DNA from: Aduncisulcus paluster
Taxonomy: Eukaryota
Assembly (NCBI GenBank): GCA_024181965.1
Contig: BQXS01010807.1
Coordinates: 1 to 38,684, forward strand
Reading direction: 5' to 3'
Length of the DNA: 38,684 bases
The notes under the pieces were generated by a model. That model was not told the origin of the DNA and ran no database searches. It saw only the letters and a list, made by a program, of their open reading frames with translations. Each line of letters starts with the position of its first letter. Within the stretch, counting starts at the first letter, position 1. The position numbers and the translations under genes are program-made. Shown in pieces: positions 10,299 to 36,756 of the stretch.

Positions 10299-10830
10299 AA
10301 TATCAATGTCTACCAGGGAATCCACAACATTCACAAACTACAACTACAACTTATCATAACACAAAAAAACTTTACAATGCAATATGTGAACAAAACTCGG
10401 GAGTTAGGAAACGATTTTGTGTCAGGAGTGGAATGACAAGACTAGTATCCAATATATGTTAGAAAGAAAACATTTATATATTTTAATCGATATATTCTGC
10501 AATGTTATCCTGCATTGTTATCATACAGAGTTTTGAATTCTAAAACTTCATTTCTTCTCGTTGTAAAAGAAATATTGAAAATATTGTATGTCATAATTTT
10601 TCATTAGTTAGATATTAACTTCTTGTCAATCCATAATCACCCTGTTTTATTCACTGATTCTCTCGCTGGCTGTTCTTTTTGTTCTTGTCGTCATTTCCTC
10701 CTTGAAATGCACTAAATGTTCGATGATTATGGTGACATTCTTTGTTAAAATTATCATATCATTTTTAGTATTGTTCGTGTTCTCATCATACACATTTTAG
10801 AACACAATGGATCCAAAATCAAGCTCAGAA
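10299..10830 (+). repeat. ~530-bp duplicated block (upstream region + first 8 codons), copy 1
   Basis: Nearly identical to 21218-21749, from AATATcAATGTCTACCAGGGAATCC to ATGGATCCAAAATCAAGCTCAGAA. Confidence 0.9.
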
Positions 10831-13800
10831 ACCGATGAAGTACGTAAAATTTGATCATTTTAAAACAAATATAATTTTATTTATAATATGAGTGTAATTC
10901 TGTCCCTAATTGATTTATTTTCTTTATTTTTCATTTTTAAAGGAAATTCCTCAGCCCAAATCAACTTTGAAAGGTCCCTATGGATCTACAATTCTCATAT
11001 CAGGATGTCCTGCCAGTTGGAATGGGAATGATGTTACGGATGTTTTATCTTGTGCATTCAAGGAGGGTGTACTGCCATCTGTGGCTGAAGATTGTTCGAT
11101 TCCCAAATATTATCCGGATGTCACTTCAATAGGGAGAGGTCTATTCAAACTCACATTTGATGGTGTCAAAGAAAATCAAAATCCTGTTGAATTTGCTAAT
11201 TCCTTCGCTGGATACATTCCTATAGATTTCCGTTACCACGCTGACCTTGACTCTATTGATTCTTCTAAACTTGTAAAGATAGTTGTTCATTTACAAGATC
11301 TAAAGACAAGAGAGTGGATTGAATGGAAAGAACAAGAGCACGATCCAAAGGTTCAACATTATTTTAGATTTACGAATATTCCTTTATTTATATCAGAAAA
11401 ATCAGAATATGGTGAAATTCCCGCAAGTTCAGGTCAAAACAAAGGGAAATTCAAGTATTCTAGTTCCAAAAAAATTGAAAATGATGATGATTCCTCCTCA
11501 TCTTCGGATGACACTGCCGTAAAGAAAGGGTGGCTTCCACGAACTGTTAGCAAATCAAAGGAATCTGGAGTATATTCCAGGAAAAAAAGAGATAAATTAC
11601 AAAAACAACAAGATTTATCAGAAATTGCAGAAGTACGTTTCTTTTGATATTGGATACTATATTATTAATTTACAAATTGTTAACTTGAATTTATTTTCTA
11701 TTTATTATNNNNNNNNNNNNNNNNNNNNGGAAATTCAAGTATTCTAGTTCCAAAAAAATTGAAAATGATGATGATTCCTCCTCATCTTCGGATGACACTG
11801 CCGTAAAGAAAGGGTGGCTTCCACGAACTGTTAGCAAATCAAAGGAATCTGGAGTATATTCCAGGAAAAAAAGAGATAAATTACAAAAACAACAAGATTT
11901 ATCAGAAATTGCAGAAGTACGTTTCTTTTGATATTGGATACTATATTATTAATTTACAAATTGTTAACTTGAATTTATTTTCTATTTATTATCTTTCTAT
12001 GTTAAGATTCAGCTCGTTCAACCAGAGTTTATCCATTTTGGGGACGGATTTTGCTGTCCAATTCCTCTTGATGCTCCCAATATCAAGAGTCCAGATTATT
12101 TAACAATTAAGGCGAGATATATCCAAAAAAAAACCGATCATTCGTACGATCAGAGTTCTGAAGCACAAAAGATGATGAAAGGAGAACCTAATGATGGATC
12201 TTTTTCCTATATTTCTATCCCTTTCTCCTCATCTTCACCAATCAAGGGTGCTTATATGTGCCTTTACTCCCACAAAACACATCCTTCTCATCTTACCTTC
12301 ACTTTTACATCCTCAAAGAGTGAAAAGAAATCCAAGAAATATGAATTTCATGAATCGGAAGGTAGTCATCATTGGTATTTCCTCCCTGTTGATCTGCCAG
12401 ATGTTGTTTTGTGTGAAATTACGGGGAAAGGAAGAGGTAAATCACATTTTTATTTTAAAATCTATTCTCTTGTCTTCATAGGTCGCGATGAAACCTCTGA
12501 AGAAATTATCCTTCGTGAAACCCAAGAAAAACTATGGTCTGATGCTCCAAATGTGAAACCGGAGGTTATTAAGGAAGAAAAAACTCAAGATTTACAGGAT
12601 ATATTACGTGTTGACCAAGTAGTTATTGGTCTTTCATCTGATATGATTGTAGCCAAGAATGATTCAGTATGTAAGGAATCTAAAGATTACGATCAGAGGG
12701 AAAAAGCACAACAAATGTTAGTCGGAGAAAGTGAAGTATATTTGTCATATCTTTCCATCCCTATCCCATCACCTAGTCCCATAAAAGGTGCTTATCTTTG
12801 TGTAGGTAAGAATACCAGTTCTCCCTCTCTTCTCTTCACTTTCACTGATTCTGATGGCAAGAAGACATCCATAAAGTATACATTCACAAGACCTAAACAT
12901 AAATATGAATGGCTCTTCCTTCCTATTGATTTGGATAACGTTGTATTGTGTGAGATTGAAGGGAAAGGAATTTGGAGAGAGGAGAATTGTCGATGTTTTA
13001 AAATTGATTCTTTGGTTTTCCTTCGGCATCGTATTTTAATAGGAGAACTCGATTTTATTCATGAAGGTAATTTTCCTTGTATTCCAATTCCTCGAGATGA
13101 TCCAACTTTTCTCAGCCCAGACTTTCCTGCAATTAAAGGAAATATTACAGAAGACAGTGATGAATATGATGAAATCGACTGTGAATATTACGATGATAGT
13201 GCCCAGCATATGTTAAAAGGTGAGGGACGTATATTTACAGATCTTTCAACGGAGTTTTCTTGTATTTCTGTTCCTTTCAAACTCTCGACCTCCATAAAAG
13301 GCGCTTATGTCTGTTTGTCGAAGAATTCCAGAAATAATTTTACTTCATCTCTTTCATTTACATGCACTACTTCAATTGGAACTAAAATATCGTATATATA
13401 TAAATTTGATGAGTTTTTTGATGGTGTGACTCAGGTGGCAAAAGGATTTTGGTTTCACCTTTCAATTAATCTCCCTGATGTTGTGTTATGTGAGATTGAA
13501 GAAGGAGAGAGGAAAATGAAGCAATTTTCTATTATTTCCCTTGCTTTTCATCGAGAAGATACCCCTGAAGAATATATTGCTCGGGAAAAAAGAAGAATTG
13601 ATCTTGAAGAACAATGGTTGAAATCTGCAGCCGTGACACCGGAGTTCATAACCGAAGGAAATTTTGATGGCGTTGATGATTCCCTGATCATAAATCCTTC
13701 NNNNNNNNNNNNNNNNNNNNTATATATATAAATTTGATGAGTTTTTTGATGGTGTGACTCAGGTGGCAAAAGGATTTTGGTTTCACCTTTCAATTAATCT

Positions 13801-16050
13801 CCCTGATGTTGTGTTATGTGAGATTGAAGAAGGAGAGAGGAAAATGAAGCAATTTTCTATTATTTCCCTTGCTTTTCATCGAGAAGATACCCCTGAAGAA
13901 TATATTGCTCGGGAAAAAAGAAGAATTGATCTTGAAGAACAATGGTTGAAATCTGCAGCCGTGACACCGGAGTTCATAACCGAAGGAAATTTTGATGGCG
14001 TTGATGATTCCCTGATCATAAATCCTTCGTTCTCACTTGCAAGCGGAAAAAATGATGTTTATTGTAAAGATTCCAACGAGTATGATCAAAGCTCAAGAGC
14101 GCAGAAAATGTTGAAAGGAGAAGATCGCGGATTATTTGGGGGCGATATCAAATCATCGTATGTGTCTATATCCCATCTTTCCATTCCTTTCTTATCACCT
14201 AGTCCCATGAAAGGTGCTTATATTCGTGTGGATAAGCATTTAAGTTCACCCTCTCTTCTCTTCACTTTCACTCTTTTAAATGGCATGAAAATATCAAAGA
14301 AGTATGAATTCAAAATTCCTGAGCATAGTTATGAATGGTACTTCCTTCTAGTTGATTTGCCTAACGTTATTTTGTGTGAAATTCAGGGTAAAGGAACATG
14401 GAAGCAGAAACAAAGTAGAAATTTTAGGATAGAATCTCTTGTTTTCATTACAGGCGACAATATTCCTCCTCTTCCTTTTGATTCCACAAAGGCTGTCAAA
14501 CATGACTCTTTCACCATAACTTCCTCTGCAACCATCACTCCTCAGTGCATCATTGGTCATGGTGGATTTGGTGAGGTTCTTCTTGTTGAAGTTGAAGGTA
14601 TTCCCATTCCTTGTGTTTTGAAGAAAATGCTCCGTGAAACAGATGAAAAGGTTGTTGAAGATTGTCGAAAGGAGTTTAAGATGCAACGAAAGTTATTTAA
14701 CAATCCCAAATGTTTCAACCGTATCCCACGTCCTTTGTATATTCTTGATCTGCTTGATGCCGATATGAAAGGTGTTTATGGATTTTTGATGGAATTTTGT
14801 TCTGGAGGCAGTGTTAAAGACTTTGCTAGAAGTTGGTGTGTTGATGGTAAGTATATGCGTGAGGATGATGTTGCCACTGATACTACTGAAGAAGAATCTG
14901 ATGAGGGAGGAGATTTTCAGGATGACAGATACTTCTCTGAATATAGTTTTGAAGAATCTTGTTTTGAATCCTCAAATTCTCATTCTGTCAGTAATAATCA
15001 AGTTAGTATTGACCCCATGACCCTAAATCCTGTAAAAGTGTGTGCTCTCTGTGTTGGAATGATCGAGTGTCTTGATGATGCGTTCAGAGCAAAGAGAAGT
15101 CTTGTCCATCGAGATGTTAAACCAGATAACTTCCTTGTTCGGGTAGATCCCGATTCAAAGAAATGTACTATTGTTCTTTCTGATCTTGGAATGGTCCAAA
15201 TCTTAGATTCTATGATTTCTTCAACAACTTCAAAGTCGACTATTTATTCAATCAAGAGCGAAAAAAAGACAATCCCCCAAAACAAAAGGGTTCCAGATGT
15301 GGAACTCTTGTATATAATTCGTATGAAACTCTTATGGATGGGACTCAGACTCAAAAGAGTGATGGATATTCTCTTGGCATGTCGATTCTTGCCTTGTTCT
15401 TATATAAACAGCCGTTTGTTTCATTGCCAATTTTTAAGGAAGTTTACAAGAAAGTTCATATTGGAAAGGCAAGCAATATTGATATTCTGAAAGTTCTGAT
15501 AGATGTAATGGAAAATAATATGTGTCCACGTCTCTCTCGATCTCCTTTGTTTAAAACCTTGTTAACCATTGAAGATGGGAAATATAAACTTGTTCATGAG
15601 GTTTTGAATGAAGTATTCACGGGTCTAACCAAAATAGATGAAGATGAACGTATGAGTGTTCATGAAGCTCGCAAGAAGGTGCAAACCATCAAACATTTAT
15701 TGCCCCAGATTGGAGAAGGATTTGAATGTCCATCCATCGAAGATATTGTAAAACGTCAGCTTGCAAAGCATCAAGGTGATACTGGATCCATTGAAGGGGG
15801 GATTAAAACTGAAAAAGAAAAGGATAATCCCTTGTCGGTTACATTACCCTCCGAATTCCAGAGTCGGGAAAAGGAATCTCGTGATACTCCATCATATGAT
15901 AGAGAATTACCACATGGTTCACAAACGTCGGCATTATCAACAACACGGAGTACTTTGGATGATCCTAGGAATCCTTTGATACATGATGTCAAAAGTGATG
16001 ATGACGCAATACAAGATTCAGAAGGCGATCACCAGGATTTATTCATTTAA
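10807..16050 (+). CDS. Repeat-domain Ser/Thr kinase, paralogue A: RRM-like exon + 4 beta-rich repeats + kinase; 1-nt frameshift in an A7 run
   Basis: Exon 10807-10839, intron 10840-10942, exon 10943-11632, intron (GTACGT; complete copy 11917-12006), and main exon from 12007. Kinase motifs GHGGFGEV, VLKK, HRDVKPDN, DLG, CGTLVYNSYE and SDGYSLG. One extra A in 15261-15267 joins ORFs 13754-15490 and 15334-16050 (KSEKKDNPPKQKGSRCGTLVY). Confidence 0.85.
11445..11992. other. Gap with duplicated flanks (11445-11708 = 11729-11992); assembly overlap artefact
   Basis: The same 264 nt lies on both sides of the 20-N gap at 11709-11728. Confidence 0.88.
13393..14028. other. Gap with duplicated flanks (13393-13700 = 13721-14028); assembly overlap artefact
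   Basis: The same 308 nt lies on both sides of the 20-N gap at 13701-13720. Confidence 0.88.
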
Positions 16051-16371: not shown

Positions 16372-18515
16372 TCATTTTGGATCAAATTTAGATCTAAATT
16401 GAGATAATTGTTGACTGTCATCCCATCCATTTTGCATACAAATACTATCCATTGGTTTGCTCTGAATGGTGCTAACAGAACCATTTGGTTTATGAAGATG
16501 TTCATCGATAATATCATCAATTGATGGACATTTCCACCCTTCTCCGATCTCTGGGAGAAGATGCTTGATAGTTTGAACCTTTTCTCGGGCTTCATGGACA
16601 CTCATTCGGAGATCAACATCAAATTGTGTTATCTCATTGAAGACTTCGTTAAGACAATGATAAACAGGCTCATACTTCCCCCCTTCAATGGTTAAAAGAG
16701 ATTTGAAAAGAGGAGAATTTGATAGTTTTGGAGTCAATCCAGTTTCAATAAGTTCTGATAATTTTGCCATGAAATAAATGTCAGATTTTACCCTTACTAG
16801 CGCTGGATGACCAAGAAATGGAGGAATACACGTGAATAAAGAAAGCATTGATAACCCAAGAGAATATCCATCGCTTTTTTGGGATTGAGTCCCTTCTTTT
16901 AATGCTTCGAAAGAATTATATACAGGTGTTCCACAGCTTGACTTTTGTTCTTCCTCAAAATGATCCGATTTATCTCCGGTTATTTTTAGAGAAGATGAAA
17001 TGTCAGCTTCCATAGAAGAAGACATAAATGAAGAGATTGAATGCTGTATTTGAGCAAGACCAAGATCTGCAAGAACAACGGTGCACTTCTTAGAATCGGG
17101 ATCAACACGAACAAGGAAGTTGTCTGGTTTCACGTCTCGATGGACAAGAGTTGGTTTAGCGATGAACACATCATCAAGACACTCGATCATCCCAACACAG
17201 AGAGCACTCACTTTTACAGGGTTTAATGTCATTGGGTTAAAAGACAAAATATCATCTTGTTGGGAATCCATTCCAACAGAATCAGAATAGCTTGATTCAA
17301 AACTTGACTCAGAATCTTCATCTCGAAATCCACAACTATTTTCATCCTCTGCTTTAAAATACTTGTCATCGGTACACCATCTCTTTGCGAAGTCTTTAAC
17401 ACTGCCTCCAGCACAAAATTCCATCAAAAATCCATAAACACCTTTCATATCGGCATCAAGGAGATCAAGAATATACAAAGGACGTGGGATACGGTTGAAA
17501 CATTTGGGATCATTAAATAATCTAAGTTGCATCTTGAACTCCTTTTTGCACCCCTCAACAACCTTTTCATCGGCCATTCGAAGCATCTTCTTCAGAACGC
17601 AAGGAATTCCATCCACTTCAACAAGAAGAACTTCTCCAAATCCACCATGTCCGATTACACACAGTGGAGTTATATCCTTTGATGATTTTAAGGTTTCCAC
17701 ACGAATATGTGGGTGCTTGCGTTTGTGTTTGTGCTTGTGCTTATCTTTGTTTTTTTGATCATGTTGATCTTTATCCTTGGTCTCTCCTCCATCGCTTGAA
17801 TCTTTCATTTCTCCATGAGAATGCTTATCTTCCATTTCATTGTCTTTTTCTTCTTCCTTTTTTGCTTCTTCTTTATCTTCTTTTTGCTTTGAAATGGTAG
17901 AAGAAGATCCACAAGTCGAAGAAGAGTTTCCAATGGAAGAAACAAATCCAGACGAAGATAATATTTGCATTGTGCCACGAGAAAAAGTTGAAGACGCACT
18001 TCCAGCTGACATGACGGTGCCTTTGAACATCAATGAAGAGATCCGATAATATCGACTATTATTTTCTTTCCAAGAACCTTTTCCTTCAATTTCACACATG
18101 ATTACATTAGAAAGATCAACAAGAAGATAATACCATTCACAATAATACTTAGGTCTTGCAAATTCATACATCTTTGACGTAATCTGACCGTCAGAATGAG
18201 TGAAAAGGAATAAAAAAGTCGGTGAGCAGGAAATATCAACGCATATAAAGATTCCTTTCATGAGGATTGGCGATGGAAAAGGGACGGAAAGATGAGAAAA
18301 GTATACACCACCTTCACCTTTCAACATTTTTTGAGCCATTAAGCTTTGATCGTATCTAGTAGATTCTTTGCTCTTCGAATCATCTTTTGACTCTACCATA
18401 GAAACTATTGGAGTTAATATCGACGGATCATCACGAGAAATTGGCACCGCCAGTCGATCTCCTTCTTTAATGAACTCAGGCTTTACCATTTCCTGAAAAA
18501 GGTAATAAACACGAC

Positions 18516-18556
<41 letters not shown>

Positions 18557-20499
18557 TAAAATAATGTTTTTAAAAAAAACAAATAGCGAAACAACAAAAA
18601 TATTTAACATACGGCCCCTGACCATTGTTGTTGGATTGAAGATTCTCTGAAAGATCTGATTAAATACTCGTCTGGAGTTTCTTCTCTTACAAATACAAGA
18701 GATTTAATGACAAAACACCCTTCTTCCTTTCCTTTTCCAGTAATTTCACAGAAAACAACATCAATTAACCCAATAGGAAGAAATAACCATGCATATCTCT
18801 TCACATCTTGTTGGAATTCGAACTTCTTGGATAGTGTTTCTCCCTTTGACGAGGTGAAAAAAAACGAAAGATATGATGGAAATGTCACTGTTGACACACT
18901 ATCATGAACACAGATATAAGCACCTTTCACGGGAGTTGGTGAGGAGAAAGGGATCGAAACACGAGTATAAACACCATTTGAATACTCTCCTTTCATCATT
19001 TTTACAGCATTATGAGTCTGAAAATATTCTTTGTCTTCACAATCTTTCGTTTCGTTTTGTGCTCCCATTTCATCATAATCAGGAATAATGACTGATGGAT
19101 CATCAAAAGACATTGGATTGCAATCTTCATTTCCCTCATGAACGAACTCAGGCATGTTGATCAAACGAGCAAGGAACGTTTCTGACTTCTTACAGCTTCC
19201 AGATAAGACAGGAGGAGTCTTCAAACGGACTTCCTCCTTGCGCAAGAAGACAAGTGAAGGAATCCTGAAATGTCGACTATTTTTACCTTTCCAGGTACCT
19301 CTTCCTTGGATCTCACACATAATAACGCCAGATAAGTCAATGGGAAGGGAATGCCATTCTCGATAATTCTTTGGAGGCATAAATTCATACTTCTTTGACG
19401 TTTTTTTACCGTTTGAATGTGTGAATGTGAAGAGAAGAGATGGAGAGCTATGATACTCGTCGACACAGATAAGAGCTTTTCCAATGGCACTTGGCAAAGA
19501 AAAGGGAACATACAGATGAGATAATGAAAGTCCCCCTTCGCCTTTTAACATGCTTTGGGCAGAAGCGCTCTGATCATAGCTCTGGGATTCTATCATTTCT
19601 GTCTCATCCCAAGACTTTACCATAGAAAGAAATGGATTAATGACGTGTGAATCGAAACGAGAAATTGGAATTGATGCCAATCCACCCTTTTTGATAAATT
19701 CAGCCTGGAATAGCGGCTATAACATTCAAACATGGGAGTTTTATCATCAAAATGAAGCAATTATATAAGATTTCAGGTTCACGAAAAATGATTTTAAAAT
19801 TGAAAATGAACAATAAACATTTATAATAATATTAAGACATACAGCAGCTGTCCAAAGCTTTTTAAGGGCAATTTCGTTGACTTCACGAGAGAATACTTCC
19901 TCTGGAGTCTTTTTTCGATGAATAAAAACAATGGATCGTATTGAAAAGCATTTTTTCGTAATTTTTTTCTTCTCTTTTAATCTTTCTCCTTCAATCTCAC
20001 ACAGAACAATATCAGCTAGATCAATTGGAAGATAAAACCAGCAAATACTTTCTAATTCAGGAAATTCATACTTTTTGAAGATTTTCCCTTTCTTGGAAGT
20101 TGAAAAAATGAAACAAAGGAAAGTATTTGGCACCATAAAATAGGTTTTCTTCTCGATGCAGATATAAGCACCTTTAATGGGGGTAGATGAACGAAAAGGT
20201 ATTGAAATGGATGTAAATTTCCCGTTATTCCACTTTCCTATCATCATTTTTTGAGCTTCAGCACTCTGATCATATTCCCGGCGGTATTTCTTGTCTTTTC
20301 TTTCATCTTTTCCACTGATACATGAAATGTGTGGATTTATGATCGCAGGATCATCACGGGGGATGGGAATGGAATCTTGACCACCATTATGAACAAATTC
20401 TGCCAGGGTTACATCTTCGATATCCTTTGGTCTTTGGGGATCGATAGGTTTAATTATTGTACTAAAATAAAATATAATATTAGATGAATATTTTTTCAA
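16372..20499 (-). CDS. Repeat-domain Ser/Thr kinase, paralogue B: 4 repeats + Ser/Lys/His linker + kinase; apparently intact, 5' exon unresolved
   Basis: Three ORFs are joined by phase-0 introns 19717-19842 (LWTAA|PLFQAEF) and 18493-18612 (QWSGA|EMVKPEF), both GTATGT...AG. Kinase motifs GHGGFGEV, HRDVKPDN, DLG and CGTPVYNSFE. Confidence 0.87.
18517..18554. repeat. 38-nt poly(A) run (poly-T on the coding strand) inside an intron of kinase B
   Basis: Homopolymer within intron 18493-18612; it explains the spurious poly-Phe in the ORF track. Confidence 0.85.
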
Positions 20500-21217
20500 A
20501 AATTTTGACGGGAGAAAAAATAGTTAGGCGAGTATAAATAAAATTTGTTGATTAAATATATATTATTGAGCCATAGATACATCAATAAATGCAAACATAC
20601 GGAGTTTGTATTATTTTTATGTGAGTCCAATGAAGAAAAAAGCATGTTTTTCGATTCGGTTCAAGTTCATACCTGAGGAATTATTGAATAATGGAATCAC
20701 ATGGTTATATAAAACATAAACTGCAAATATAAGAGCCTTTATATTATTTCCACCCGAAAAATTAATTATTGCACTATTATTTTGAAGGATTTTAATGGTG
20801 AATCTCCACGAGGAATTTCATATCGAGAAATAATCTCTTTTTCAATATTATTTGCGCAAATCAAAGAAATTAGAGAAAATAATGAACCATTTCTGATATT
20901 ATATATAAAAAAATGGGGTTTACGCCAAGAAGTAATGACGACAACTCGAAAAAGGACTAAACGATTATTAAATAACATTATATGGGCACAATAGAACCGA
21001 TTTTATATATAAATAGTCAATAAATAATGTAATATTTTGTTGTTATTCTCCTTGAGAAGCTATTGAAAACAAACTTTCGATAATTATGAGAGAATTTAAA
21101 GTAAAATACATAAATATCTTGAATCTAAGATATCATTAATTTTCCAAAGATATCAACGATCAAGATGATCTATATTTATCAAATGATTTGGAGATGGATG
21201 AAAACCGAGAAACACCA

Positions 21218-21749
21218 AATATAAATGTCTACCAGGGAATCCACAACATTCACAGACAACGTCCATAACTTATCATAACACAAAAAAACTTTACAATGCA
21301 ATATGTGAACAAAACTCGGGAGTTAGGAAACGATTTTGTATCAGGAGTGGAATGACAAGACTAGTATCCAATATATGTTAGAAAGAAAACACTTATATAT
21401 TTTAATCGATATATTCTGCAATGTTATCCTGCATTGTTATTATACAGAGATTTGAATTCTAAAACTTCATTTCTTCCCATTGTAAAAGAAATAGTGAAAA
21501 TATTGTATGTCATAATTTTTCATTAGTTAGATATTAACTTCTTGTCAATCCATAATCACCCTGTTTTATTCACTGATTCTCTCGCTGGCTGTTCTTTTTG
21601 TTCTTGTCGTCATTTCCTCCTTGAAATGCACTAAATGTTCGATGATTGTGGTGACATTCTTTGTTAAAATTATCATATCATTTTTAGTATTGTTCGTGTT
21701 CTCATCATAGACCATCAAGAACACCATGGATCCAAAATCAAGCTCAGAA
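21218..21749 (+). repeat. ~530-bp duplicated block (upstream region + first 8 codons), copy 2
   Basis: Nearly identical to 10299-10830. Confidence 0.9.
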
Positions 21750-24080
21750 CGTAGCCAAGATATTGTATGTTTCTGAAAGTTTTCGAATTTATACATTTTA
21801 TGATGTTTGACATAATTAAATTGAAAAATAATGCCCATATTGCTTTCATAACTCCTTTGCACCAAAAACTCAATTAATTTGTTAGATTCAAGAAGTTAAA
21901 CCAGAGTTTATTCATGAAGGTGATTTATCTTGCTCTCCAATTCCTCGAGATGCTGCGAATGTTAAGAGTCCAGACTTTGTAGTTATCGAAGCCAAGAATA
22001 GAACCAAGCGAAAAGATGGTGACAAAGGCTATGATCAGAGTTCTTATGCACAACAGATGATGAAAGGAGAGCGTAATTGGGGAAAATTTACCGATATCTT
22101 CGTTCCTTTCTCCACATCTACTCCCATTAAAGGTGCATATATTTGTATTGGAGGAAAAAATACCCGATTACCCTCACACCTTATCTTCTCTCTTACATCT
22201 TCAAATGGGGAGAAAATGGTTAAAAAATATGAATTTCCTGAATTGGAAGGTTATCATTGGTATTATCTCCCTATTGATCTCTCTGATATTGTTCTGTGTG
22301 AGATTACAGGGAAAGGAAAAGATGAAGAGTCTTTTGAAATCGACTCCTTTGTTTTCATTAGTAGAGAAGAAACCCCTGAAGAAATCAACTCTCGTGAAGC
22401 CAGAGAGAAATTATGGTCTGAAGCTCCTGTTGTGAAACCAGAGTTTGAAATTTTAGGATAGAATCCCTTATTTTCATTAAAGGTGAAGACATTCCTCCTC
22501 TTCCTTCTGATTCCACAAAGGCTATCAAACATGACTCTTTCACCATAACTTCCTCTGCAACCATCACTCCTCAGTGCATCATTGGTCATGGTGGATTTGG
22601 TGAGGTTCTTCTTGTCAAGGTTGATGGTATTCCTATTCCTTGTGTTTTGAAGAAAATGCTTAGTATTGCTGACAAAAAGGTTGTAAAAGATTGTCGAAAG
22701 GAGTTTAAGATGCAACGAAAGTTATTTAACAATCCCAAATGTTTCAACCGTATCCCACGTCCTTTGTATATTCTTGATCTGCTTGATGCCAATATGAAAG
22801 GTGTTTATGGATTTTTGATGGAATTTTGTTCTGGAGGCAGTGTTAAAGACTTTGCTAGGAGTTGGTGTGTTGATGGTAAGTATATGCGTGAGGATGATGT
22901 TGCTGATGATAGTGAAGATTCTGATTCATCTTGTATTTCTGATTCTGACTCCAAGAATGATATTGATACAACTCATTTTGATCCCATGAGACTGAACCCT
23001 GTAAAAGCCTGTTCTCTCTGTGTTGGAATGATTGAGTGTCTCGATGATGTGTTTAGAGCAAAGAAGAGTCTTGTTCATCGAGACGTGAAACCAGATAACT
23101 TCCTTGTTCGTGTTGATCCCAAAGATGGAGAATGCACAGTTGTACTCTCTGATCTTGGAATGGTCCAAGTCTTAGATTCTATCACATCATCTGTAACTTC
23201 CAAAAGTTATATTCCTTCCTCTTCTTCCACCAAACAAGAAAAACGACTTTCACAACCTAAACCCTCTGCTTGTGGAACTATCGTGTATAATTCTTATGAG
23301 ACTCTCTGTGAAGGAAAACAGACTCAAAAGAGTGATGGATATTCTCTTGGCATGTCGATTCTTGCCTTGTTCTTATATAAACAGCCGTTTGTTTCATTGC
23401 CAATTTTTAAGGAAGTTTACAAGAAAGTTCATATTGGAAAGGCAAGCAATATTGATATTCTGAAAGTTCTGATAGATGTAATGGAAAATAATATGTGTCC
23501 ACGTCTCTCTCGATCTCCTTTGTTTAAAACCTTGTTAACCATTGAAGATGGGAAATATAAACTTGTTCATGAGGTTTTGAATGAAGTATTCACAGATCTA
23601 ACCAAAATAGATGAAGATGAGCGTATGAGTGTTCATGAAGCTCGCAAGAAGGTGCAAAGCATCAAAGATTTATTGCCCCAGATTGGAGAAGGATTTGAAT
23701 GTCCATCCATCGAGGATATTGTAAAACGTCAGCTTGCAAAGTATGAATCTGGATGCATTGAAGAGGAAATGCAAGATACTGAAAAACAGAAACAAGATAG
23801 TGAATCATCATCAAGACATGCTACACCCACTTTAACAACAACAGGTTCATCTGAAATGGAGAAGAAAGAAGATGGAATTCCTTCGTTTCCTTCTCAATTC
23901 TCAAGTTCAGTAATCTCTCGTGATTTAGACAATGAAATCAAGCAAAAACAGGATGATCTGAGTTCACAAGGATCTGGAATTCCTTCGTTTCTTTCACAAT
24001 TATCAAGTCCAATAATCTCTCGTAATCCACTGATAGAAGAAGATGGAGAACATGACACTCAAATTGTTGAAGATCAATAA
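21726..24080 (+). pseudogene. Repeat-domain Ser/Thr kinase, paralogue C: one repeat retained, next repeat deleted with frameshift; kinase ORF intact
   Basis: Exon 21726-21764 (MDPKSSSERSQDI), intron 21765-21885, exon from 21886 (IQEVKPEFIHEG). At ~22446, KPEF is fused out of frame to GAAATTTTAGGATAGAATC, which in paralogue A (~14418) is the end of the repeat. The kinase frame runs ~22458-24080. Confidence 0.75.
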
Positions 24081-28470: not shown

Positions 28471-29808
28471 ATGGATTATTCCTTTTCCAGCGATACAGCA
28501 GAAAACGAGTCATATAAACACGACAAGAAACCTTTAATGCCCCCATCTCATCTTCAACACTCACCAGCTCGCGTCTCCTTTCTTATAAGTTCACCCAAAC
28601 AAAGTTCTCCAGTTGTTACCCATATTATGAATTCTCCACAACGTACATTGAAATCTATCGGTGTATCTACACCTCCTGCACCTTCTTTTGATTTGGATGA
28701 CATCCCAATCCAAAGTGCAAGTTTATCCCCGGCTGGCTCTAAATTTATGCGAGATCGATTGTATAAAAAACAATATAAATCAAGTGTTAGACCCAAATCT
28801 TATTCAATTGATTCTCTGGACGAAGATATCGGCTCAGATGTTGTTCCTCTCGATTTGGAGGAAGATCTCATTCAAGACAGCGCAGATTTATTAAAAAGTG
28901 CCCAAGAACTGTCTTCCTCATTAAAACAAATTCAGCAATCCCTTTCATCAAGAAGATCAGCCACTACCAATTCTTTTACCTCCCATTCACAAATTCCTGT
29001 TACTCCACCAATCAAAAAATCAACCATGACAGGTTTGTCTGACGATCGCATTCAACACCAGGCTGTCCAACATGAAGATAGTGTTATTCCACCTGTTTCA
29101 AGGGTTTTCGAAGAAGATGATGAAGGAATTGATTTAATTGGAGATGAATTGAAAATCAGTCAATTATCAACACCCGAAACTCCATCGGGCCTTATTCGAT
29201 CAGCTGTGATGTCAAGTCCCATTCGCAGAAGCCATCAAAACATGACGCAAAGTCAAACACAAGCCCAAAGCATGTTATCTGCAAGTAGAGCCGAGAGCAC
29301 CTCTCCTCTGCACTCTAAACCACGAATTGTGGCAGTTAGAAGGACTCAATTCCCGATGAGACCACCGACATTCCCAAAATTCCGCCCAAGAACATCGTTT
29401 ACTCCACAATTAGACTCAAAAATGATCATCGATGATCCTTATACTTTGTCTAGACCGGTGTCACAGGTTATGGACGAAATTAAATTACTNNNNNNNNNNN
29501 NNNNNNNNNCAGCTGTGATGTCAAGTCCCATTCGCAGAAGCCATCAAAACATGACGCAAAGTCAAACACAAGCCCAAAGCATGTTATCTGCAAGTAGAGC
29601 CGAGAGCACCTCTCCTCTGCACTCTAAACCACGAATTGTGGCAGTTAGAAGGACTCAATTCCCGATTAGACCACCGACATTCCCAAAATTCCGCCCAAGA
29701 ACATCGTTTACTCCACAATTAGACTCAAAAATGATCATCGAGGATCCTTATACTTTGTCTAGACCGGTGTCACAGGTTATGGACGAAATTAAATTACTTT
29801 GGAAATAA
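28471..29808 (+). CDS. Hypothetical Ser/Pro-rich, largely disordered protein (true length ~340 aa)
   Basis: Long ORF. 29201-29489 is repeated at 29510-29798 across an N gap, so the C-terminal repeat is most likely an artefact. Confidence 0.65.
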   Translation: MDYSFSSDTAENESYKHDKKPLMPPSHLQHSPARVSFLISSPKQSSPVVTHIMNSPQRTLKSIGVSTPPAPSFDLDDIPIQSASLSPAGSKFMRDRLYKKQYKSSVRPKSYSIDSLDEDIGSDVVPLDLEEDLIQDSADLLKSAQELSSSLKQIQQSLSSRRSATTNSFTSHSQIPVTPPIKKSTMTGLSDDRIQHQAVQHEDSVIPPVSRVFEEDDEGIDLIGDELKISQLSTPETPSGLIRSAVMSSPIRRSHQNMTQSQTQAQSMLSASRAESTSPLHSKPRIVAVRRTQFPMRPPTFPKFRPRTSFTPQLDSKMIIDDPYTLSRPVSQVMDEIKLXXXXXXXXAVMSSPIRRSHQNMTQSQTQAQSMLSASRAESTSPLHSKPRIVAVRRTQFPIRPPTFPKFRPRTSFTPQLDSKMIIEDPYTLSRPVSQVMDEIKLLWK

Positions 29809-29965
29809 ATATTTAAATCTAATAATGAATATTGTTTCAAAATTAATATTATTATTTTTTTCTCTCCGATCCAAAATGAAAACTTCATTTGTGACGCACT
29901 TCCACATATTACATCTCTTATAATAGTTTTTTTTCGATTTTAATTCACTATACATTAAATATCTG

Positions 29966-32434
29966 ATGTCTGAACATAGTTTTCTTGGTGATGAAGGTGA
30001 AATGACTTCTTCTCGCTCTCCTGGGGCATCTCATGACATTCTTCACGATGATGAAAGGGATCAGGTCCATACAGAAGATGTAGAACTGATTGGAGGCACC
30101 GCCACGAGTGAACTTTCATTCAAAGAGAAATGTGACAAGGTGCTGGCGAAAATGATCACTTTTTCTGAAACACCAGTTAATCAAGCCCTTTGTCAATGCC
30201 CTAAGAAATATGATTTGTATCAATGCCCAATTTGTTATTCTCTTTTATGCTCTCAGGATAGTTATCTTAAGATTGGGTGTGGTCATTGTTTTCATAAAGA
30301 TTGTCTTAAAAAATGGGCAGAAACACATCGTGATTGCCCTGTATGCCGATCTCAATTAAACTCAGCCCTGTTACAAATTGAAGGAGGTTTATTGCTCGAT
30401 AAGGAAAAAAATGTGATTAGGTTGTCATCAGTGATGTTTAACCGCCTTAAAATGAAAGGAGATGGCACTAAATTCCCTACCACCTCATTTACAGTCATGG
30501 AACTCGGCGAAGAGCTTTTAATATGGGTACAAGGAAGGAAAGAATTCAAACTCGAAGGTGTGCGTCCTACGAGTCATGTTTTTCTCAGAGAACCCCCATT
30601 CTTGCCCTCATCAAGCTCGTCTTCACTCATTTATCCAGGTGGTGGGCGTCTTTCTGATATTCTTCAATTTTATAACGATGAACATATCACCATCGCTGAT
30701 ATTCACAACTCTGTGGGCATAACCATTGGGAAATTCTTACTTGAGGCATGTAAACTGGTTGAATCCCGGCCTGGGACAGATGTTAGATTACGTAGAATCT
30801 CCCCCAAAGATATATTTATATCTTACAAAGTCTGTGTCTGGCTCAGTGGGACTCAATTGCTTCCTCCAGAGGTAGTCAAGGAGATTCAAGATGGCAAAGA
30901 ACAGACTGATATTGCCATTCTTGCAAGACCCGTTGAGAAAGTGTCTGAAGAAGAAGAAGAAAAGGGAGAAAAAGAAAAAGAAAAAGACACAAAGGTGAAT
31001 GAAGAAGAGGAAGAAGAAAAATATTCTTCTGATCTTTATGCTCTTGATCTTGGAAAATACCATGAAGAAATAGAGATCGGACAAGGCATAGTTGAGATAA
31101 TGAAATTATTTGGTCTCGATGTTTCGGATCTTGAACCAGTGCTTATCTCACCCTCCAAACCTTCCTCTTCCTCTTCCTCTTCCTCTTCCTCTTTCTCTTC
31201 CTCTTCCTCGACGTCAATTGAAACCAATAGAGAATCCATAGAACAATTCCTAATGTCATTGGCAGATTCCTCAACTTCTCCCGGTGCACAGGCGCTGGCT
31301 ATTGATAATGCTCTTGATGGGCTACCAGAGTGTGACGATTGGGAAGGATTGACCGCTGGATCCTTTCACACTCTCCAAGACGCAAGAAATGCCACTGCAG
31401 CTGCCCATGAAGCAGAGGTTGCTCCACCTGTTGGACCTAATGGATTTATCGAAGAACTTGGATGGAATAATATAATGGGTCCGTTACATGACACTTCTGA
31501 GACCATTCCACCCATTGAAGACGGCGATGCTGCAATTACACGTTTTATTAAAAAATTTATTCTTACTCCACTTAACATTGGGTTTGTAAGAAGAAACGTC
31601 AAGGATACATTAATTGAATATATAATGGCGAGTGTTTTATTCTTGACTCTTGGAGTTTTTTTCTTTTATATTGTTATCAAAGAAATTCAATATAATTCAG
31701 TTTGGTCGTATCCTGTTGAGGGGTCTTATCTCTTTTCGATCACTTCTTTCGCTGTTAAATATCGCTGGTGGCTTTGGTCGGTTGGTTGTGTATTCACTGT
31801 CGGTAATCTTGTACAAATCGCTTATAAAAGATTAAATAATTTCACTCTGATAGGCTCTTTTACGAAAGTATTTATATTTTTAGGTGAGAAACTTGTTTGG
31901 TTAATTGCTATCGTGTTAGGATGGCTTGGAGCACTCGGGTGTTCCTTTTCCAATGATTGGAAACATGGAAATTTTATGTATTTTTCATTTTTCGGACCAA
32001 TTCGTGTTGCTATCCAATGCATCTTTAATTTGATAAACCTTGGTTTGTGTGCATTGTGTTTGAAACTTCACACATCAACACCCGTCAATATGTTGGTTAC
32101 TGTTTCGACACACATTATCTTCTCCTATGTTGCCCATATCTTTATATATGTGTCGATTGGAACTCATATCTCGAACAATGATAACTGGAATTGGTGGTAT
32201 GAATATCACCAGTGGTGCATATATTATCTCTCACCTCTGTACGAAAGTGTTTGTACAACATTGCGACGTTTATTGGATTCTCAAGATGAGTATAACGCTG
32301 TTTTCCCCGATTTCTTCGCCTGTTCTTCAATAATGCTAAATATGAGTGCCTATTACTTCTATCATTATATCCTTATGGATATTTTATGTGTTTTTATCCC
32401 TCCTCTATTTATATTGTCAGCATTCGCTGATTAG
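29966..32434 (+). CDS. RING-H2 finger protein (putative E3 ligase) with C-terminal multi-pass membrane region
   Basis: CPIC-x-CGHCFHKDC...W...CPVCR (C3H2C3), acidic and Ser-rich linkers, and several hydrophobic segments in the last ~270 aa. Confidence 0.85.
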   Translation: MSEHSFLGDEGEMTSSRSPGASHDILHDDERDQVHTEDVELIGGTATSELSFKEKCDKVLAKMITFSETPVNQALCQCPKKYDLYQCPICYSLLCSQDSYLKIGCGHCFHKDCLKKWAETHRDCPVCRSQLNSALLQIEGGLLLDKEKNVIRLSSVMFNRLKMKGDGTKFPTTSFTVMELGEELLIWVQGRKEFKLEGVRPTSHVFLREPPFLPSSSSSSLIYPGGGRLSDILQFYNDEHITIADIHNSVGITIGKFLLEACKLVESRPGTDVRLRRISPKDIFISYKVCVWLSGTQLLPPEVVKEIQDGKEQTDIAILARPVEKVSEEEEEKGEKEKEKDTKVNEEEEEEKYSSDLYALDLGKYHEEIEIGQGIVEIMKLFGLDVSDLEPVLISPSKPSSSSSSSSSSFSSSSSTSIETNRESIEQFLMSLADSSTSPGAQALAIDNALDGLPECDDWEGLTAGSFHTLQDARNATAAAHEAEVAPPVGPNGFIEELGWNNIMGPLHDTSETIPPIEDGDAAITRFIKKFILTPLNIGFVRRNVKDTLIEYIMASVLFLTLGVFFFYIVIKEIQYNSVWSYPVEGSYLFSITSFAVKYRWWLWSVGCVFTVGNLVQIAYKRLNNFTLIGSFTKVFIFLGEKLVWLIAIVLGWLGALGCSFSNDWKHGNFMYFSFFGPIRVAIQCIFNLINLGLCALCLKLHTSTPVNMLVTVSTHIIFSYVAHIFIYVSIGTHISNNDNWNWWYEYHQWCIYYLSPLYESVCTTLRRLLDSQDEYNAVFPDFFACSSIMLNMSAYYFYHYILMDILCVFIPPLFILSAFAD

Positions 32435-32478
32435 AAATGAAATAATAGTTACTATATGGTAACTTATATACTATATTA

Positions 32479-32670
32479 TGGACATTCAAATCCTTCTCCA
32501 ATCTGGGGCAATAAATCTTTGATGCTTTGCACCTTCTTGCGAGCTTCATGAACACTCATACGTTCATCTTCATCTATTTTGGTTAGACCCGTGAATACTT
32601 CATTCAAAACCTCATGAACAAGTTTATATTTCCCATCTTCAATGGTAAACAAGGTTTTAAACAAAGGAGA
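32479..32670 (-). pseudogene. Orphan ~190-bp fragment of the kinase C-lobe from the A/C subfamily
   Basis: Encodes SPLFKTLFTIEDGKYKLVHEVLNEVFTGLTKIDEDERMSVHEARKKVQSIKDLLPQIGEGFECP; reverse complement of ~15541-15732 and ~23514-23705. Confidence 0.85.
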
Positions 32671-32680
32671 GCCTATCGTA

Positions 32681-35600
32681 TTATTTCTCATCGAGATATA
32701 ATATAGAATCTCTATGATCGCCATGTGTCGTCTGAATTGTTGAAGATATAGTCAAAGATGATAGTCCACTTGCTTCAAAACTTTCCTTCGAACTTTCTCG
32801 TTTCTTTGGACTTGCTTCGATATGTCTTTGAAAAGTTCTATCAGAATACATGTCACGGTGATCATCAACGTGGCTTTGTTTCTTCATTGGGGACAAAGAT
32901 GTGGGAAACATGTCTCCTAAATCACTTAGATTACCTCCCTGAGAAAACCACCCCTCACCAATTTTTGGTAGCAGATGCTTGATATCTTGGACCTTCTTGC
33001 GAGCGTTATGAACGCTCATTCGTTTTTTATGATCTAATTGTGTGAGACCAGTGAATACTTCATTCAAAATGTCATGAATATGAATATATTGACCTCCTTC
33101 AATGACAGATAAAGCAGAAAAGAGATCACAACTTTCTAATTTTGGGACTCTACCACTTTCCATCAATTTCAGCAAAGTGTGCATAATATCATAACTATTA
33201 ACAACACCTCGAAATACAGGCATGGATATGAAGGGATCAGCGCATTGGAACAAGGCAAGAATCGACATACCAAGAGAATATCCATCACTCTTTTGAGTCT
33301 GTTTTCCTGTACAGAGAGTCTCATAAGAATTATACACGAGAGTTCCACATTTTGATGGTAAATTTTGTGAAGATTTATCATGTTTCGTGGAAGAGGAAGA
33401 AGAAGCTCCGAAACTCTTTGATGATCTGGAGGATGAAACAGAATCTAAGATTTGAACCATTCCAAGATCAGAAAGAACAACTGTATATTCTGTATTTTTG
33501 GGATCAATACGAACAAGGAAGTTATCAGGTTTGACATCTCGATGAACAAGACTTCTCTTTGCTCGAAACACATCATCGAGACACTCAATCATTCCAACAC
33601 AGAGAGAACATAGTTTCACTGGGTTCAGTATCATGGGATCGAAACGAATAGAACTTGATGGATCCGAAGTTTTCGAATCATCTTCATCTTTCACACTTCC
33701 ATACTTACCATCATCACACCATTTCCTGGCAAAGTCTTTAACACTGCCTCCAGCACAAAATTCCATCAAAAATCCATATTCACCTTTGAAATGTTCATCA
33801 AGCAGATCAAGAATATACAAAGGACGTGGAATACGATTGAAACATTTTGGATTGTTAAATAATCTAAGTTGCGTTATGAACTCTTTTTGGCACCCTTCAA
33901 CAACCTTTTCATCGGCCATTCGAAGCATCTTCTTCAGAACACAGGGATCAGGAATTCCATCCACTTTGATAAGAAGAACTTTTCCAAATCCACCATGGCC
34001 AATAACACGGATTGGAGTTATGCCCTTTAATGAGGTCAATGTTTTTACACGAACATGTGGGTGCTTGAGTTTGTGTTTATCTTTGATGATGGGTTTGTCT
34101 TTGCCCGAACTCTTTCCATTGCAAAAATCTTTCATTTCCCCTCCACTAGAATCTTTGTCTTTCTTTTCAAGGATCAATTTTTCTTCTCGCTTCTCTTCCC
34201 CAATATTTGATTCAAGAACAACATCTTCAATCACTCTGTCCTGTATTTTTGGTTCTTGAGATTTTCTCTCCCAATACAGAAAGTCGCATATCGACCTTTT
34301 CATCTGTAGTTCAGAATATTCTAGATCAAAAACAGTAACATAAAGTGGCACAGTATCCCGAATGAAAATCAGGGAATGATCCTGAAACATCGACTATTCT
34401 TCTCTTTCCATCGCCCTTTACCTTCAATCTCACACATATCTATATTTTTCACGTTAATCGGAAGGAAATACCATTCTTTTCTATATTTAGGTTCTGTGAA
34501 TTCATATTTCATGGATGATTTGGTCCCATACACTCTGCCGAATGTATTGCTGAAAGTGAAAAGAAGAGAAGGTGAACTATCATACTCGACTACACAGATA
34601 TAGGCCCCTTTAATATTGCTAGATACCGGAAAAGGAATGGAAAGATGTGTTAAGGACACATAATCGTTCCCCTTTAGCATTTTCCGTGCATCTAAACTCT
34701 GGTCATACTTTTCAGATTCCATACTGTATACATCGTTTGTACATTTTACACCCTCAAAGGAAGGATTTAAAACTGTTGAATCATCACGAGGAATGGGAAT
34801 AGAACCTCTCGCTCCTTCATTCTTAAATATTGGCTTCAAAGATGGAGATTTCAACCACAATTTCTAAAGGGAAAATTCTTTATCCTTCCGAGAGATATAT
34901 TCATCAGGGGTTTGTTGTCGAACAAAGGCAAGAGATCTAATTCCAAACACTTCAATTTCATTTCCTTTCCGATCAATCTCACACAAAGCGACATCAGAGA
35001 GCCCGATTGAGAGATAAAACCAACTGGATCTTGTCACTTGAAATTCATATTTCTTTGATAATTTGTTTCCCTTTGAAGAGTAAAATGTGAAGATAAGATA
35101 TGATGGTGACGAATAATGATTATTTAAACAGATATAGGCTCCTTCGATCGGGGTAGATGGAGAGAAAGGAATGGAAATATGGGTAAAAGTGCCATAATAA
35201 TAGCATCCTTTCATCATTTTTTGGGCAGAAACACTACGATCCCCGTCAAAATCAAAATCATCAATAGAAAGGGGATTATCAGTGGCAAAATCCCTTGCTT
35301 TAATTGCTAAATACTGTGGACTGACAATAGTTGGATCATCTCGAGGAATTGGAATGCAAAATTCATCGCCATAGTGAAAAAGCTTGACTGAGCCCATAGA
35401 AATGTGTCTTTCAAGGAAAATAAGAGATAAAATAGAATAAGATCTTGAATTCTTGTTTCCCCATGTTCCTTTCCCCTCAATCTCACACAATACAACACTT
35501 TGCAGATCAATTGGAAGAAAGTGCCATTCATAATCGTATTCGGGGCTCGTAAATTCATACTTCTTGGATGTCTTCTTACCTTCAGAATCAGTGAAAGTGA

Positions 35601-36756
35601 AGAGAAGAGAGGGTGAACTCCAATTATCATCCACACAGATATAAGCACCGTTCATAGGACTAGGTAATGTGAAAGGAATGGAGAGATGGGATAAAGTAAC
35701 ATCGCCTTCTCCTCTTAACATTTTCTGTGCATATCCACTTTGATTATACTTTTTTGATTCCTTGCAAAAAGAATCATCCTTTCCCTTTACCTTATCAAAT
35801 AAAGGGCGTATAATTGATAAATCTGCTCGTGGAATGGGAATTGAAGAAAATTTGCCAGGATTTGTAAACTCCGGCTTCACAATTGGTGTGTCAGCCCATA
35901 GATTTTCGAAGAAAGCCTCTCTGGATTGACGAACTATTGATTCTTCAGGCGTTTCTTTCCTAATAAAAGCGAGGAATTCAATGCAAAAACACTCTTTTTC
36001 TCTTCCTTTCCCAGTAATTTCACATAAAACAACATCAGTCAAATCAACCGGAAGAGATAACCAACTATCATCCTTCAATTCTGGAAATTCATACCTTTTT
36101 GCTGTTATTTCTTTCTTGGCAGAATAAAAAGTGAAAATGAGATATGAAGGATGGTAATATTTGGAAACACAGATATGAATAACTGACATGGGAGTAGATG
36201 GGGAGAAAGGAATCGATACATGTGTGAAAGATCCAGAGTTCCACTCCCCTTTCACTATTTTTTGTGCATTTAAGCTCTGATCATAATTTTTGTCGCAGAT
36301 ATCCAGTGTCTTATTCCTCGCCTTGATATTCAGAAAGTCGGCGGCTAATATGTTGGAAAGATCTCGAGGAATTGGAATACATGTTCCATCTCCCTGATGG
36401 ATAACTTTGGGTTTCATAATTTCAATCGGATCCTGAGAAAAATGAGTAGGCAAAATAGAGTGGAAATAACAGGAAAATTACAGAAAAAATAAATGGAGAT
36501 CGATAAAATTTAAAGGTTAAAATATATTTTATCAATATAATCAGTTTGCTTTATAGAATTGACATACAGATTTGGGAGGATATATTACAGAGGTTTCTCT
36601 ATCTAATATGCATTCCTTAGAAACACTATCTCCACCACTTGAGCTCATAGATGGCGTTGAATAATCAGTTTCTTCTCCACGATTTTCTATTTCAGTACAA
36701 TCCTCAAGGGAAAGATCATCAGATTCAATAATCGCATTCTTTGAAGAAGAGCTCAT
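32681..36756 (-). pseudogene. Repeat-domain Ser/Thr kinase, paralogue D: acidic N-exon + 4 repeats + kinase; in-frame stop and frameshift
   Basis: Exon 36568-36756, intron 36433-36567 (GTATGT...CAG). In-frame TAG at 34864-34866 (EFSL*KLWLKS, where paralogues have E) and a 1-nt deletion near 34378 (expected CFRIHSLIFIRD). Kinase motifs GHGGFGKV, HRDVKPDN and DLG are intact. Confidence 0.8.

Follow-up and report, generated by a model that had tools for sequence, protein, structure and literature searches.

The discoidin domain receptors (DDRs) DDR1 and DDR2 combine a pair of discoidin-type β-sandwiches and a kinase in one polypeptide. In these type I membrane receptors the discoidin pair is extracellular and the kinase is a Tyr kinase. 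APC10, HERC2, HECTD3, and CUL7 contain intracellular jelly-roll domains that share this fold; such DOC domains are single and found in ubiquitin-ligase contexts. In plants, the lectin/malectin and leucine-rich repeat (LRR) receptor-like kinases form large kinase clades that carry carbohydrate-binding-like β-sandwiches or LRRs. Here we describe a 38.7-kb contig (BQXS01010807.1; 38,684 nucleotides, hereafter the window) from Aduncisulcus paluster, a free-living anaerobic flagellate that belongs to the Carpediemonas-like metamonads and is a barely studied relative of Giardia. Four of its genes, numbered 1 to 4, join tandem β-sandwich repeats to a protein kinase. These genes probably belong to a very large family whose members are soluble Ser/Thr kinases with multiple domains, including new β-sandwich arrays that presumably act in recognition. 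Sequence searches indicate that the window samples a family of hundreds and does not hold the four-gene system described in the initial annotation.

The DDRs parallel the window genes in overall plan, and the DDR1 ectodomain (4ag4) is matched by a model of two adjacent repeats (E 1.2e-6). However, the window genes have no signal peptide or transmembrane (TM) segment by a hydropathy heuristic; members of the family contain 1-15 units; the catalytic loop reads HRDVKPDN and is not of the Tyr-kinase type; Pfam reveals no sequence relation; and the geometry of the repeat pair differs, as detailed below. The DOC proteins share the fold, but the 13 repeat units of the window do not match the APC10/DOC domain PF03256 at E ≤ 10, and identity in structural alignments is 8-15%. 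The NLR/STAND receptors differ in domain content: Pfam detects no NB-ARC or NACHT NTPase, TIR, or death domain in the window genes or in 50 scanned relatives (41 of 270 retrieved proteins, with long unassigned stretches, plus nine that are TM-bearing or have unusual partners).

Giardia offers a further comparison. Its Nek kinases carry ankyrin repeats or coiled coils, whereas the accessory domain in A. paluster is a β-sandwich array. According to a published account (PMC3218828), 198 of the 278 kinases of this related fornicate are Neks, mostly catalytically inactive and tied to cytoskeleton and development. Like them, the A. paluster family is a set of cytoplasmic kinases that has expanded in one lineage, evolves fast, and has undergone duplication and loss, but its catalytic motifs are mostly intact. 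Membership of the A. paluster kinase among the Neks is unsupported by its weak, partial profile matches to solved structures.

The repeat and kinase domains

Genes were located with stop-to-stop open reading frames (ORFs) and two hidden Markov models (HMMs) built from the family, one for the repeat and one for the kinase. The repeat HMM finds 13 full units in the window: four each in genes 1, 2, and 4, and one in gene 3. (A 14th match is an artefactual duplicate fragment beside an N gap.) The kinase HMM finds four kinase domains and one orphan C-lobe fragment. The plan proposed in the initial annotation holds in outline, with a short N-terminal exon, one to four repeats, a low-complexity linker, and the kinase. 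Its estimate of a unit of ~150 residues does not: units are ~155-175 residues long and fall into two alternating subtypes, A and B.

The 13 window units are 36-55% identical to a reference unit. Type A ends in a helix with the signature EETPEE...REAxEKLW, which type B lacks. Among 514 typed units from the 270 retrieved proteins, A followed by B accounts for 156 of the 293 adjacent pairs (BB, 68; BA, 47; AA, 22), and in 73 of 80 cases a type B unit adjoins the kinase.

Pfam returned no relevant match for the 13 window units at E ≤ 10; the sole matches were to four unrelated families, one unit each, at E 0.1-0.18. Structure prediction, which the initial annotation had proposed, gave a confident fold. 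The AlphaFold2 model of a single unit, made from a 13-row alignment, has a predicted local distance difference test score (pLDDT) of 93.3 and a predicted template-modelling score (pTM) of 0.88. Its best Foldseek match is APC10/DOC1 (1gqp; E 2.6e-4, query-based template-modelling score, TMq, 0.56), followed by BIRC6, CBM32, F5/8 type C, muskelin, and SUN. VIA, a structure search independent of Foldseek, returned 87 chains at Z ≥ 8, with its top rows tied at Z 12.1-10: the CBM32 of ZmpB (Z 12.1; root-mean-square deviation 2.9, 131 aligned), an F5/8-C domain (11.5), APC10 (11.5), IFT25 (11.4), muskelin (11.3), the DOC domains of HECTD3 (11.2) and HERC2 (10.8), and CUL7 (10.6). The repeat is therefore modelled as a galactose-binding-domain-like jelly roll (CBM32/F5/8-C/discoidin/DOC) that forms a new sequence family. 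No subfamily can be assigned, because the CBM32, F5/8-C, and DOC rows score equally. In the ESM Atlas the repeat scores 0.82 to F5/8-C-type NADase translocation domains, which is below 0.9 and serves as a lead only.

Modelled together, an A unit and the following B unit form one confident body (pLDDT 94.8, pTM 0.89) with a 20-residue linker helix (residues 156-175). The predicted organization of the arrays is thus one of rigid A-B pairs joined by a helix. The solved tandem pairs that the model matches are ZmpB CBM32-1/2, neuropilin b1b2, DDR1, and factor VIII; as TMq reaches only ~0.23-0.32, the pair geometry is unmatched among them.

Across 386 units, conservation extends over the strands and the motifs IPIPRDDP, YDQSxxAQKMLKGE, SIPF, KGAYICV, LLFTFT, KKYEF, WxFLPIDL, and VVLCEIEGKG. 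Two of these, IPIPRDDP and YDQSxxAQKMLKGE, are strongly conserved motifs of surface type. The variable residues (10-14, 22-45, 58-61, 84-90, 110-117, and 139-146) are nearly all assigned to loops by DSSP.

The kinase matches PF00069 with 51 bits in gene 2 and 55.3 in gene 3, against a cut-off of 31.7; PF07714 is weaker. The aligned window kinases carry GHGGFGE (GxGGFG), VLKK, HRDVKPDN, which we take to be a catalytic loop of Ser/Thr type, and DLG, along with a long Ser-rich activation segment, GTxVYNSYE, and the family-specific tail LLPKIGEGWxCPSIEDII. Catalytic competence had been proposed from such motifs, and the wider family bears this out: among 67 near-complete kinase domains, 59 retain an intact HRDxKPxN and 62 retain D[LF]G (in 59 cases as DLG), so most family kinases look catalytically competent. 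A single-sequence search against the PDB returned nothing at 1e-5, and a profile search gave weak, partial matches to STK38 (3.3e-11), CDPKs (~1e-9), RIPK1 (~3e-9), HRI, and Nek7 (6.8e-8). From these comparisons the domain appears to be a divergent Ser/Thr kinase.

The proteins appear to be soluble, as the initial annotation had supposed. By the hydropathy heuristic, no hydrophobic 19-mer reaches Kyte-Doolittle (KD) 1.7 in the in-frame exons of the window, with the fourth exon of gene 2 and the first of gene 3 set aside as read out of frame; the maximum over 19 residues is ≤1.69, within β strands or kinase helices, and the N-terminal exons are hydrophilic. In the family at large, a TM-like segment outside the kinase core is present in 5 of 265 proteins and absent from the other 260.

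The number of copies far exceeds the four genes first noted. Counts were drawn from protein databases and are not a genome-wide census. Of 232 retrieved proteins, at least 199 have repeats (535 units in all, from 1 to 15 in each protein) and 116 have the kinase domain. Both are present in 83, and in 79 of these 83 the repeats stand N-terminal to the kinase. A search with the gene 2 ORF at E ≤ 1e-3 returned 111 matches, all from A. paluster. In another search 93 of 99 matches were from A. paluster, and the other six were generic kinases (E 1e-12 to 7e-6). The repeat profile, run against 1.84 billion representatives, found 171 clusters at E ≤ 1e-3, 104 of them at E ≤ 1e-30; the source is known for 59 of the 150 listed matches (30 looked up, including the weakest listed, and 29 named elsewhere), and all are A. 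paluster. To date the family is known from this organism alone. Members are present in the EukProt transcriptome set, whose label EP00764 / 'Carplike_NY0171' is tied to A. paluster. In at least ten further cases, family members with neighboring locus tags are found on one contig, so clustering is general in the family; the highest A. paluster locus tag encountered was ADUPG1_014271. The architecture had been put forward as undescribed, and so it appears: the repeat has no Pfam family, and the listings returned by literature searches on Aduncisulcus kinases and expansions and on discoidin-kinase proteins contained no description.

Other domains accompany the repeat or the kinase in some relatives: PARP (P0113), PARG (P0050), LRR (P0133), MSP (P0046), thioredoxin (P0104), RRM_1 (P0256), and, in P0038, integrase and chromo domains. 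Some of these unusual fusions could be chimeric models. No Pfam family at all was found in 20 of the 41 relatives with long unassigned stretches. Four of the five proteins with a TM-like segment, all kinase-clade relatives (P0018, P0049, P0055, and P0074), have an LRR-like N-terminus, then the TM-like segment, and then the kinase, which is the plan of a receptor-like kinase. The LRR score of P0074 (30.0) passes the Pfam cut-off of 27, and the scores of the other three (21.9-23.8) fall below it. Shared ancestry with the plant proteins is not claimed, and the great majority of the family differs from them in lacking a TM segment. P0018, the sole TM-bearing member with repeats, has two of them between the TM segment and the kinase; its repeats therefore lie on the kinase side of the membrane, unlike those of an outward-facing sensor.

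The four genes of the window

The initial annotation placed four paralogues at 10807-16050 (+), 16372-20499 (-), 21726-24080 (+), and 32681-36756 (-). These positions stand: ATG codons are present at 10807, 21726, and 36756, and the stops fit. The genes are non-contiguous, and ADUPG1_007774 and ADUPG1_007775 are deposited family proteins on this contig. Three copies had been thought to carry lesions. The deletion in gene 3 and the TAG codon and frameshift in gene 4 are present in the sequence, whereas the frameshift and gaps of gene 1 are assembly artefacts and the breaks in gene 2 are introns. The window thus holds one intact gene, one intact but for its start codon, one truncated copy, and one probable pseudogene. 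Their features are collected in Table 1.

Table 1. Coordinates of the repeat-kinase genes and associated features in the window
Feature	Position	Strand	Details
Gene 1, upstream region and start of exon 1	10299-10830	+	Copy 5' of gene 3 (21218-21749), 96% identity, 532 nucleotides
Gene 1	10807-16050	+	Exon 1 10807-10839 (MDPKSSSETDE, 11 codons); exon 2 10943-11632; exon 3 from 12007 to stop 16048-16050
Gene 1, repeats	12016-12537 (A), 12553-13029 (B), 13051-13593 (A), 13961-14467 (B)	+	Repeat HMM
Gene 1, kinase	14486-15822	+	Kinase HMM; same long exon as the four repeats
Gene 1, N gap and copy	11709-11992		264 preceding nucleotides repeated at 100%
Gene 1, N gap and copy	13701-14028		N 13701-13720, then 308-nucleotide 100% copy of 13393-13700; scaffold-join artefact inside the gene
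Gene 1, A7 run, one A short	15261-15267	+	Apparent frameshift in the activation segment
Gene 2	16372-20894	-	5' exon at least 20601-20894 (RNA-seen); intron 20600-20462
Gene 2, exon	20461-19843	-	Repeat A 19873-20403; then intron 19842-19717
Gene 2, exon	19716-18613	-	Repeats B 19228-19707 and A 18640-19152; then intron 18612-18493
Gene 2, last exon	18492-16372	-	Repeat B 18022-18486; K/E/H-rich linker; kinase 16411-17769
Gene 3	21726-24080	+	Exon 1 21726-21764; intron 21765-21885; repeat A 21895-22416; kinase 22512-23807
Gene 4	32681-36756	-	Exon 1 36756-36568; intron 36567-36433
Gene 4, repeats	35914-36414 (A), 35407-35880 (B), 34876-35382 (A), 34378-34836 (B)	-	Repeat HMM
Gene 4, kinase	32939-34102	-	C-terminal tail diverges after GEGW
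Orphan kinase C-lobe fragment	32479-32718	-	Model positions 335-413; just past and overlapping the gene 4 stop

Two read runs inform these structures: X1, which is DNA, and X2, which is presumably of RNA type. X2 is treated as RNA-containing because the GT..AG joints 18491>18612, 20461>20601, and 26635>26745 are present in X2 and absent from X1. Introns of the window have GTATGT or GTACGT donors, an AG acceptor, and lengths of ~90-140 nucleotides.

The contig carries four N gaps of 20 nucleotides, three of which (11709-11992, 13701-14028, and 29490-29798) are followed by a 99-100% copy of the preceding 264-308 nucleotides; at the 29490 gap both runs join 29200 directly to 29510. Duplicated gap edges are systematic scaffold-join artefacts that inflate ORFs in the assembly. 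The frameshift in the activation segment of gene 1 has a similarly technical origin: an extra A behind 15260 is present in the sole covering contig of each run (depth 1316.4/1316.4 in X1 and 21.9/21.9 in X2), and the shift is therefore an A7/A8 homopolymer assembly error. The added A restores the reading frame (...SEKKDNPPKQKGSRCGTLVYNSY...). Other apparent frameshifts in the assembly may share this cause.

With these artefacts discounted, gene 1 is intact. Its exon 2 encodes a 230-residue N-terminal module that recurs in P0022 (E 3.9e-41) and P0040 (E 7.4e-33), and its N-terminal ORF has no match in Pfam. The ESM Atlas relates the module at 0.76-0.82 to unnamed and RRM-type clusters, again below 0.9 and a lead only. 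Genes 1 and 2 converge, and an X2 contig (15711-16914) covers both 3' ends together with the intervening 320-nucleotide spacer; this could reflect overlapping 3' untranslated regions or DNA in the RNA-type run.

The breaks in the gene 2 ORF are GTATGT..AG phase-0 introns in the linker between repeats, directly after the LW..A motif. Two of the joints seen in X2 alone (18491>18612 and 20461>20601) belong to this gene, showing that it is transcribed and spliced. One X2 contig covers 17917-18491 and continues at 18612-19439; since it crosses the joint up to 19439, the exon with repeats 2 and 3 is present in mRNA. The predicted intron 19842-19717 has no joint among the listed read joints and is neither confirmed nor refuted by them. 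No ATG in frame with exon 2 occurs in 20601-20900; except for the start codon, gene 2 is intact. ADUPG1_007774 (P0001; 16372-21657, -), the deposited model, omits the 1.1-kb exon that encodes two repeats. Its start at 21657, reached through a distant 5' exon, needs a non-consensus GTGCAT donor, and the RNA contigs favor another structure. A poly-T run of ~50 nucleotides (18507-18568, -) lies within the 120-nucleotide intron of gene 2, and read contigs break there.

Gene 3 is a truncated copy that has lost repeats through an out-of-frame deletion. At the junction (~22446-22450), KPEF, from the beginning of the next unit, is fused to the final strand of a terminal repeat. The annotated model contains a 41-nucleotide intron (22416-22456, GTCTGA..AG) that would restore the frame; no joint among the listed read joints corresponds to it, leaving it neither confirmed nor refuted. 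Loose contig ends at 22447 run on into an intact B repeat. Summed contig depth, which does not equal copy number, is ~50x the single-copy level in X1 over 21076-21739 and 30-146x the flanking level (~1,200) over 21076-23731, which comprises gene 3 and its upstream region. Sequence like gene 3 seems to exist in many near-identical copies. More broadly, 2393 X1 contigs were placed on 19.9 kb, and summed depth over the kinase and gene 3 segments is 15-146x the flanking level.

Gene 4 contains an in-frame TAG (34866-34864) and a 1-nucleotide frameshift (~34380-34373) that lies outside any homopolymer. Both lesions are covered with 0 gaps by an X1 contig (33911-35000) and an X2 contig (33755-35000), and gene 4 is a probable pseudogene. 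A reading of TAG as a sense codon was rejected, as TAG terminates other ORFs in the window. The orphan C-lobe fragment next to gene 4 is 98.4% identical to gene 1 15541-15733 and 97.9% identical to gene 3 23514-23706.

The GC content of the window is 31-40%. The interval between genes 3 and 4 contains an unassigned ORF, a Rab-type GTPase, a Ser-rich ORF, and a RING/TM protein, and STT3, an LRR ORF, and a DUF1697 ORF lie 5' of gene 1. Bacterial origin or contamination of the cluster was rejected because of the spliceosomal introns and the eukaryotic neighbors Rab, STT3, and RING. The DUF1697 ORF (3900-4430, +) is full length (PF08002, E 5e-40) and stands amid intron-bearing eukaryotic genes. 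DUF1697 is chiefly a bacterial family, and this ORF may have been acquired by lateral transfer.

Turnover and competing explanations

The window bears the marks of the clustered birth-and-death turnover that had been proposed for it: the family is large, the number of repeats varies, and there are a pseudogene, a copy derived by deletion, and an orphan fragment. Genes 1 and 3 have a mosaic structure: they are 96% identical in the upstream region and exon 1, 61% (amino acids) in the first repeat, and 93% and 88% in the kinase, with 93.4% identity between gene 3 22434-22903 and gene 1 14407-14874. Apart from this pair, the window copies are not mutual closest relatives.

The explanation we favor begins with the β-sandwich array as the part that would recognize a target or ligand, a role suggested by its fold. 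Variable loops may set specificity, and the conserved motifs may serve a common contact. The array would then place or switch on the kinase in the cytoplasm, plausibly through clustering-driven autophosphorylation of the Ser-rich activation segment. The family would grow and decay through local duplication, unequal recombination between repeats, gene conversion, and pseudogenization.

Several observations weigh against this account. A recognition role for the array is proposed by analogy, and a shared fold does not in itself show function. The initial annotation contrasted divergent repeats with a conserved kinase; this is true of the N-terminal halves of the kinases (70-82% identity, against 41-61% for repeats in the same position) but not of the C-terminal halves (54-90%), which in some pairs are as divergent as the repeats. 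Nor did the ratio of nonsynonymous to synonymous substitution rates (dN/dS), a comparison that had been proposed, separate the two domains: pairwise values range from 0.18 to 0.39 in the kinase and from 0.13 to 0.59 in the repeats, below 1 in both alike, with dS often >1, saturated, or undefined. The repeats therefore look constrained and not obviously diversifying. Restriction to one species is qualified in two ways: the source of 91 of the 150 listed profile matches, and of 21 unlisted ones, was not checked; and, with few Carpediemonas-like organisms represented by sequence data, "species-restricted" may mean only lineage-restricted. Finally, many family records are partial proteins on short contigs, so that the counts may be inflated and some fused architectures chimeric.

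Constraint on the repeats also bears on a different role, in which the arrays dock kinases onto parts of the flagellar and feeding-groove cytoskeleton as an expansion of cell-architecture kinases. We regard this as unlikely. Purifying selection on the repeats is compatible with it, as are the solubility of the proteins and the fold matches to intracellular IFT25, muskelin, and DOC domains, and the related fornicate Giardia has a comparable expansion whose Neks localize to the cytoskeleton (PMC3218828). The A. paluster kinase, however, is not demonstrably a Nek, as STK38, CDPK, HRI, and RIPK1 are its best profile matches in the PDB; it keeps the catalytic motifs that most Giardia Neks have lost; and Pfam finds no ankyrin in the window gene pieces or the 50 scanned relatives. 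Immune-like recognition of non-self, prey, symbiont, or virus inside the cell, with divergent arrays detecting foreign molecules and the kinase signaling, was suggested at the outset; it is speculative and decidedly unlikely. It would suit a large, clustered, one-species family with variable repeat number, a pseudogene, and fragments, and with adjacent members on at least ten further contigs; repeat variability concentrated in loops, the fusions to PARP, PARG, and LRR, and the LRR-TM-kinase relatives point the same way. Yet dN/dS across the whole domain stays at 0.13-0.59, every unit retains strongly conserved polar motifs that suggest a common partner, and the NB-ARC, NACHT, TIR, and death domains are missing from the proteins scanned. 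The position of the P0018 repeats argues against an outward-facing sensor, and the 198 Neks of Giardia (PMC3218828) illustrate that protist kinase expansions need not be immune.

It is highly improbable that the family is a largely non-functional one, recently amplified and spread by recombination or mobile elements, in which the majority of copies are in decay. In favor of this reading, damage affects two of the four window copies, and there is an orphan fragment; summed depth is high over the kinase and gene 3 segments; many records are partial and on short contigs; and P0038 is fused to integrase and chromo domains. Against such decay, dN/dS is well below 1 in both domains, most copies retain the catalytic motifs, conservation of the repeat core is high across 386 units, gene 2 gives spliced transcripts, and transcriptome-derived members exist. 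A soluble kinase family with recognition arrays remains the likely explanation.

Implications for Aduncisulcus paluster

The family is real and undescribed, and its structural description is well supported. Lineage-specific kinase expansions are already known as a phenomenon. This one combines three novelties: a widespread recognition fold represented by a new sequence family, a rigid unit of two domains in arrays of up to 15 units, and a kinase clade with mostly intact motifs. The HMMs and the domain model can be used to annotate the A. paluster genome, and they flag errors of annotation (skipped repeat exons and chimeras) as well as of assembly (homopolymer indels and duplicated gap edges).

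Should the arrays turn out to sense ligands, they would represent a new way to build a cytoplasmic receptor repertoire. A bolder and very unlikely version is a cytoplasmic, array-type recognition system of this free-living, phagotrophic protist, in which hundreds of kinases with differing combinations of rigid, lectin/DOC-like A-B pairs would read foreign (prey, symbiont, or viral) or damaged-self glycans or peptides and signal by phosphorylation. Shuffling of repeats would generate diversity, in part through the skipping of exons at the phase-0 introns of the linkers, which would preserve the frame. If true, A. paluster would possess an innate-immunity-like class of receptors unrelated to NLRs, TLRs, and plant receptor-like kinases.

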